A stretch of DNA of 5,076 nucleotides from IMG/VR virus record IMGVR_UViG_2663762849_000013; one strand, written 5' to 3'. The translations under genes were made by a program, and so were the position numbers. This DNA is from a virus. Its lineage: Duplodnaviria; Heunggongvirae; Uroviricota; Caudoviricetes. The notes beneath the pieces were generated by a model. It saw only the letters and a program-made list of their open reading frames with translations, ran no database searches and had not been told where the DNA came from. Shown here in pieces: positions 4,750-5,076 of the stretch. Positions within the stretch are counted from its first letter, which is position 1, and every line of letters begins with the position of its first letter.

Positions 4750-4841
4750 ACTGATTCCTCGCGGTGCTGTTTCGCTTATCAGCCGTTAGATTTTGCCGAA
4801 CTGAAAAGCACCTGTTTAAATTCGTTGAAGCTGTGAGCTTC

Positions 4842-5076
4842 GGTGATGCTGCCAACTTACTGATTTAGTGTATGATGGTGTTTTTGAGGTGCTCCAGTGG
4901 CTTCTGTTTCTATCAGCTGTCCCTCCTGTTCAGCTACTGACGGGGTGGTGCGTAACGGCAAAAGCACCGCCGGACATCAGCGCTATCTCTGCTCTCACTG
5001 CCGTAAAACATGGCAACTGCAGTTCACTTACACCGCTTCTCAACCTGGTACGCACCAGAAAATCATTGATATGGCC
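4842..5076 (+). mobile_element. IS1 insertion sequence, left end (inverted repeat GGTGATGCTGCCAACTTACTGAT), continuing beyond the window end
   Basis: From 4842 the sequence GGTGATGCTGCCAACTTACTGATTTAGTGTATGATGGTGTTTTTGAGGTGCTCCAGTGGCTTCTGTTTCTATCAGC matches the canonical IS1 left end and insA leader as I remember them. Confidence 0.95.
4897..5076 (+). CDS. insA: IS1 InsA (transposition repressor / N-terminal part of the InsAB' transposase), first 60 codons, partial
   Basis: A GTG start at 4897 gives (M)[59 protein letters not shown], the InsA zinc-finger N-terminus. The ORF track missed it because the start is GTG and the ORF runs off the window. Confidence 0.9.

Follow-up and report, generated by a model that had tools for sequence, protein, structure and literature searches.

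IS1 lies within ydfB of a lambdoid prophage, between the upstream promoter region and the ydfC-DicF-dicB-ydfD genes

Results

The window carries a dicBF-type operon that adjoins an IS1 end

The window analysed here is the whole stretch of 5,076 bp that makes up the draft contig CCBY01000343.1 (GCA_000936105.1). It contains part of a prophage and ends in an insertion sequence on either side. Its features, with the basis of each assignment in brackets, are listed below.

1..103, minus strand: end of an IS600 element, whose orfA starts MSRKTQRYSKEFK; this is the contig end opposite IS1 (H71 annotation 'IS3-like element IS600 family transposase' and translation)
104..731, minus strand: 5′ part of the integrase gene, approximately 209 of 376 codons, cut by IS600 (sequence comparison)
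1022..3493, minus strand: exonuclease gene of 823 codons, broken and called as pieces of 184 and 632 aa (comparison with the IS-free locus L013)
3589..3777, minus strand: ydfD-like gene, DUF1482, 62 aa, intact (Pfam PF07358)
3774..3962, minus strand: dicB, 62 aa, intact (Pfam PF05358 DicB; identical to the IS-free allele)
4137..4188, minus strand: DicF small RNA gene, full length (Rfam RF00039)
4531..4749, minus strand: ydfC, 72 aa, intact (homologues carry the ydfC annotation; the identical protein occurs widely)
4750..4778, minus strand: ydfB-ydfC spacer of 29 bp with the ydfC ribosome-binding site GAGGAA (alignment; same as in IS-free alleles)
4779..4841, minus strand: 3′ remnant of ydfB, codons 23-42 and stop (comparison with L013 and RefSeq annotation of homologues)
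4833..4841, no strand: one copy of the 9-bp target-site duplication, GTGAGCTTC on the plus strand and GAAGCTCAC on the gene strand (same 9 bp before the IS1 right end in L022-L029)
4842..5076, plus strand: left 235 bp of IS1, with the left inverted repeat (IRL), promoter and 5′ part of insA (identity to full IS1 copies)
4842..4871, plus strand: IRL of IS1, approximately 30 bp, starting GGTGATGCTGCCAACTTACTGAT (sequence; length from PMC12428005)
4849..4876, plus strand: promoter-like CTGCCA-16-TATGAT, pointing into IS1 and away from ydfC (position of the weak IS1 promoter)
4897..5076, plus strand: first 60 codons of insA, with a GTG start, cut by the contig end (Pfam and translation)

The DicF gene (Rfam RF00039; bit score 76.7, gathering score 48, E = 2.9e-16) is placed between ydfC and dicB, as in the dicBF operon of Qin-type prophages. 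For reference we used the IS-free alleles at the loci among the matches listed for the exact ydfC protein, which included no IS-bearing locus. Over positions 104-4841 the window differs from one of these, L013, by 1 base in 4,738 bp, and the genes downstream of IS1 are therefore intact.

That the sequence from 4842 onward is IS1, as a preliminary sequence-only reading of the window had proposed, was borne out by identity, inverted repeat, Pfam domains and genome annotations. Positions 4842-5076, which start with GGTGATGCTGCCAACTTACTGAT, are 99-100% identical to IS1 copies, among them the IS1 of L026 and L028 (236/236 positions identical) and the annotated IS1 of E. coli F5656C1 (99.2% identity). 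The same segment matches approximately 79,000 places, annotated as IS1 family transposase, in 5,177 of 5,426 complete E. coli genomes. The terminal inverted repeat of IS1, GGTGATGCTGCCAACTTA..., which is approximately 30 bp long (PMC12428005), is present at the end of the element from 4842 onward. Just inside it sits the insA ORF with its zinc ribbon and helix-turn-helix: the gene at 4897-5076 has the Pfam domains Zn_ribbon_InsA and HTH_Tnp_IS1 (PF03811, PF12759), and its translation is the N-terminus of InsA. The weak IS1 promoter, PIS1, is known to overlap the IRL (PMC12428005), and since the promoter-like site found there is on the plus strand, IS1 transcription runs rightward, away from ydfC. 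The window stops 235 bp into IS1 because the short-read assembly broke at the repeat. A full 768-bp IS1 with a PF03400 (DDE_Tnp_IS1, insB) gene is found in L025-L028, contigs that reach the element from the ydfA side.

IS1 interrupts ydfB between codons 22 and 23

The IS-free alleles of E. coli strain 10 and K-12 align collinearly with the window as far as position 4841 and no longer align from 4842, and in BLAST comparisons with seven near-identical IS-free loci the match ended at 4841 in all seven. The gap of 92 bp between the ydfC start codon and IS1 (4750-4841) is made up of the native 29-bp spacer and the last 20 codons of ydfB with its stop. The minus-strand frame at 4841..4782 gives EAHSFNEFKQVLFSSAKSNG and stops at 4781..4779; it matches codons 23-42 of ydfB in L013, a gene of 42 codons, without a difference (MDFDTIMEKAYEEYFEGLAEGE/EAHSFNEFKQVLFSSAKSNG); the name ydfB at the homologous place follows RefSeq annotation in K-12 and many other strains. 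An intact 42-codon ydfB upstream of ydfC is absent from the window, which retains codons 23-42 of the disrupted gene only, and the 5′ 66 nt of ydfB sit on the far side of IS1. These comparisons confirmed that IS1 sits inside ydfB, between the upstream promoter region and ydfC-DicF-dicB-ydfD.

The sequence-only reading had described an IS1 inserted 92 bp from the ydfC start that splits the dicB operon from its upstream region, and alignment and gene coordinates both agree with this structure. It had also described the last 20 codons of a truncated upstream ORF. The coordinates and translation of that ORF are correct, but it is ydfB itself and not an extra gene. We accordingly rejected an arrangement in which ydfA and ydfB both lie beyond a separate truncated ORF, as the ORF is ydfB cut between codons 22 and 23.

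The 34-mer at the junction in the window is also present in two more assemblies (L017 and L018). The window's IRL junction was found in none of 5,426 complete E. coli genomes, and the exact 34-mer had no match in the GTDB species representatives or in JGI metagenome contigs.

The reciprocal junction carries the matching 9-bp duplication

Had IS1 made a simple insertion, the far side of the element should encode an ORF composed of YdfB residues 1-22, the residues EAH from the duplicated 9 bp and a read-through into the IS1 right end. A protein search with this predicted fusion returned a match, P0001, with 100% identity and 100% coverage. Among the matches listed for P0001, an exact 52-mer comprising the ydfB 5′ part, GAAGCTCAC and the right inverted repeat (IRR) of IS1 was present in 8/8 contigs. 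Copies of GAAGCTCAC thus occur on the minus strand of the window, at 4841-4833, and in L022-L029, where the IS1 IRR follows immediately. A reciprocal junction with a matching 9-bp duplication marks the founding event as a simple IS1 insertion, and from this duplication we infer that the IS1 of the ydfA-side contigs is the same copy as that of the window. L017, which is 99.97% identical to the window, and L028 (GCA_000941195.1) belong to one assembly, in which the window's IRL junction and the reciprocal junction occur together. No reciprocal-junction contig from the window's own assembly, GCA_000936105.1, was among the matches listed.

Beyond IS1, L022-L024 carry ydfA, a 212-aa Peptidase_S24 repressor, a P22-Cro-like gene, YdaT and replication genes. 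As the upstream region is kept beyond IS1 in these sister assemblies, it has not been deleted in the lineage. The sequence-only reading had proposed to look for ydfA, ydfB, dicA and dicC beyond IS1, with a target duplication of 8-9 bp; what the sister assemblies hold is the ydfB 5′ part, ydfA, an immunity region and a perfect 9-bp duplication, but no dicA or dicC.

The upstream region has an S24-type immunity module

In near-identical prophages the immunity region consists of the 212-aa Peptidase_S24 (CI/LexA-like) repressor, a P22_Cro-like gene and YdaT. DicA/DicC control was not found in these near-identical prophages, whereas K-12 has dicA/dicC at that place. The order repressor, ydfA, ydfB (or its 5′ part) was seen in the IS-free L013 as well as in the IS-bearing L022-L024, and the spacer between repressor and ydfA in L013 contains a predicted promoter, TTGACC-17-TAAACT. 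In IS-free relatives the prophage adjoins ompW and yciC. Gene calls give the S24-peptidase repressor 112 aa in some of the IS-free loci (L013 5055-5393) and 212 aa in others (L009/L022). Its S24 domain suggests that the prophage undergoes RecA-dependent induction.

In K-12, dicBp, located upstream of ydfA, is the only promoter of the operon that could be detected, and processing of the polycistronic transcript that starts there yields DicF (PMC10448788). An older study, as cited in the same paper, proposed a second promoter upstream of dicB (PMC10448788). The expectation of a DicA-repressed promoter beyond ydfA and ydfB is borne out in part: the K-12 data place a promoter upstream of ydfA (PMC10448788), but the immunity genes of this prophage are not DicA/DicC. 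Taken literally, a DicA-repressed promoter was rejected, as the immunity module differs; with an S24/Cro-like module that lacks DicA/DicC, the description holds by analogy only. The putative promoter placement used below is itself taken from K-12, where the immunity region differs from that of this prophage.

Transcription across IS1 is predicted to be polar

We propose that a 768-bp IS1 transposed into the ydfB gene of a lambdoid prophage usually found beside ompW, inserting between ydfB codons 22 and 23 and duplicating 9 bp (GAAGCTCAC). The resulting order would be repressor, PL-like promoter, ydfA, ydfB 5′ part, IS1, ydfB 3′ part, ydfC, DicF, dicB and ydfD, with the transposase genes of IS1 lying antisense to the operon. 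Transcription that starts at the upstream promoter would then have to cross IS1 on its antisense strand, from which Rho-dependent polarity would follow, and the insertion itself would create no new promoter.

Several features of the predicted transcript are consistent with this proposal. The frame of the YdfB′-IS1 fusion ends 78 nt into IS1, there are approximately 780 nt without a translated gene between the fusion stop and the ydfC start, and approximately 350 nt of the antisense IS1 RNA contain 31-35% C versus 22-26% G. Given the early fusion stop and the long untranslated, partly C-rich RNA, Rho-dependent polarity is to be expected. The classical gal and lac literature established that IS1 is polar in both orientations. 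A terminator-like hairpin within IS1 (4982-4968, 5-bp stem, on the ydfC-directed strand) was no more than chance would give and was dropped. Judging from these sequence features, we favour polar silencing of ydfC-DicF-dicB-ydfD, which we regard as reasonably probable, over retained or new expression; most probably the prophage switch no longer governs DicF and DicB, which would be largely silent.

For the downstream genes to stay or become expressed, transcription would have to leave IS1 via the IRL, coming from the upstream promoter or from a weak promoter at the right end, or start at either a hybrid or a native internal promoter, which we consider unlikely. An outward -35 box in the IS1 inverted repeat can activate neighbouring genes, although a hybrid promoter requires a -10 at the proper distance (PMC8764528), and the IRL of the window does contain an outward -35-like TTGGCA (5/6; 4855-4850, minus strand). 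The hexamer 16 nt past it, at the -10 position, is however CAGCTT, which matches the -10 consensus at 2/6 positions, and a scan at spacings of 15-19 nt from TTGGCA gave no better -10 pairing. No sigma-70-like site of 9/12 or better facing ydfC was found in IS1 or at the junction. With no -10 that TTGGCA could use, a hybrid promoter is not predicted, and the one that the sequence-only reading had envisaged is left without sequence support. The other suggestion of that reading, read-out from the IS1 transposase promoter, fails on orientation, since insA is transcribed away from ydfC. A weak native match, TAAACA-17-CAAAAT (8/12), is present at 4818-4790, but it also occurs in IS-free alleles, and experiments in K-12 detected no internal promoter (PMC10448788); the promoter upstream of dicB in the older report, as cited in that paper, would speak for continued expression. 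The downstream genes are all intact, which could be taken in the same sense, but their integrity is uninformative on expression because the whole 4.7 kb has one substitution. Machida and colleagues reportedly saw, in 1984, weak inward promoter activity of the IS1 right repeat, which would point towards ydfC.

A founding simple insertion explains both junctions

A further alternative is that recombination between IS1 copies rearranged or deleted part of the prophage, such that ydfC-DicF-dicB are unlinked from ydfA and the repressor region in this isolate. The window contig stops inside IS1, its other end is also an IS, and the many IS copies in the lineage would provide plentiful substrates for recombination. 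Moreover, contigs that run through the whole IS1 from the ydfA side (L026 998-1797, L027 1178-1337 and L028 1169-1312) join three different flanks, one of which is another IS (HTH_Tnp_1 and HTH_21 genes). As each joins a different flank, we rejected these three contigs as proof of linkage across IS1. They come from closely related short-read assemblies, however, and the differing flanks are likely repeat mis-joins in draft assemblies. Both the perfect reciprocal 9-bp duplication on the ydfA side, which indicates a founding simple insertion, and the coexistence of the two junctions in one sister assembly (L017 and L028) argue against rearrangement, which appears quite improbable. A contig that ends in an IS should not be taken as a deletion.

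That the junction is an assembly artefact, in which an unrelated IS1 read path was joined to ydfB, might be suspected of a draft short-read assembly whose contig ends in a multicopy repeat, but is highly improbable given the identical junction in at least three assemblies and the reciprocal junction with its matching 9-bp duplication in at least eight contigs, which include metagenome assemblies made, judging by contig names, with other assemblers.

We therefore hold with good confidence to the explanation as a whole, namely that IS1 made a simple insertion into ydfB with a 9-bp target duplication and that polar silencing downstream is its likeliest consequence.

The prophage carries two further lesions

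Compared with L013, the prophage has three disruptive lesions (IS600 in int, a nonsense change in the exonuclease gene and IS1 in ydfB) and no other change. With int cut by IS600, it is a remnant unable to excise by its own integrase. The exonuclease nonsense change, C to T at 2940 (codon 2939-2941, Trp185, TGG to TAG), is the sole substitution relative to L013 in the 4,738 bp and is common to the sister assemblies L017-L019 and L021; a look-up of the 632-aa exonuclease fragment returned the window itself and nothing else. This pattern of lesions points to recent prophage decay in a lineage of E. coli or Shigella with many IS elements. Contigs of three other, seemingly unrelated assemblies (L015 6354, L016 5382 and L020 1379) end within exonuclease codon 185, at the equivalent of window position 2941/2942 and next to the nonsense position, where prophage-borne exonuclease genes probably meet at a mosaic or repeat boundary.

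IS1 insertions upstream of DicF have occurred independently

An independent IS1 lies in the ydfB of a different prophage in L030 (GCA_961209955.1, approximately 6060-6120), 3 bp further downstream and in the same orientation (...GAAGCTCTCAGC/GGTAATGAC). In addition, six complete E. coli genomes (L002 2626-4005, F5656C1; H2-H6) have an extra segment of approximately 1.38 kb between ydfC and dicF, which holds a full IS1 with a 9-10-bp duplication; in these six records, matched at 84% coverage, IS1 is located between ydfC and dicF and not in ydfB. Together with the insertion in the window, there are thus three independent IS1 events upstream of DicF: two in ydfB and one, in the six genomes, between ydfC and dicF. 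It is doubtful that IS1 insertions between the promoter and DicF/dicB recur through selection, although if they do, toxic division inhibitors of a non-excising prophage would be defused without the genes being destroyed. The second ydfB event would fit either such selection or, as the alternative, a target hotspot for IS1 in ydfB.

Discussion

The insertion described here closely resembles classical polar IS1 insertions, such as those in gal and lac and the IS1 copies in K-12 yrhA and afuB, in its 768-bp IS1, its 9-bp duplication, its promoter-proximal target and the untranslated IS RNA. It differs from them in that the target is ydfB of a dicBF-type operon and in that the polarity is predicted. 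The operon itself has the same gene order as the Qin dicBF operon of K-12 (ydfABC-dicF-dicB-ydfDE), and K-12 Qin matches window positions 4500-4841 (ydfC and the ydfB remnant) at 95.3% and the stretch from DicF to ydfB at approximately 96%. Whereas Qin has DicA/DicC, the prophage of the window lies beside ompW and has an immunity region with an S24 repressor and a P22-Cro-like gene. Its ydfB is split by IS1, and its int and exonuclease lesions differ from those of K-12 Qin, which has IS2 in the exonuclease/int region. Like the IS1 upstream of afaA in ST131 (PMC8764528), which forms a hybrid promoter, the IS1 of the window places an outward -35 in its inverted repeat directly against host DNA; unlike that case, the window junction has no -10 at the required spacing, and activation is not predicted.

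We regard this as an ordinary insertion mutation of a well-known operon in a decaying prophage, which probably mutes the operon. Apart from the predicted uncoupling, IS1 in ydfB is the kind of IS-mediated change that is routine as prophages decay. Cell division is blocked by DicF and DicB, which also alter metabolism and influence sensitivity to phages. In strains with the ydfB::IS1 allele, lifting of the prophage repressor probably no longer turns them on. The allele thus bears on how DicF/DicB phenotypes or the toxicity of prophage induction are read in this lineage, and would offer a natural promoter-uncoupled allele for comparison.
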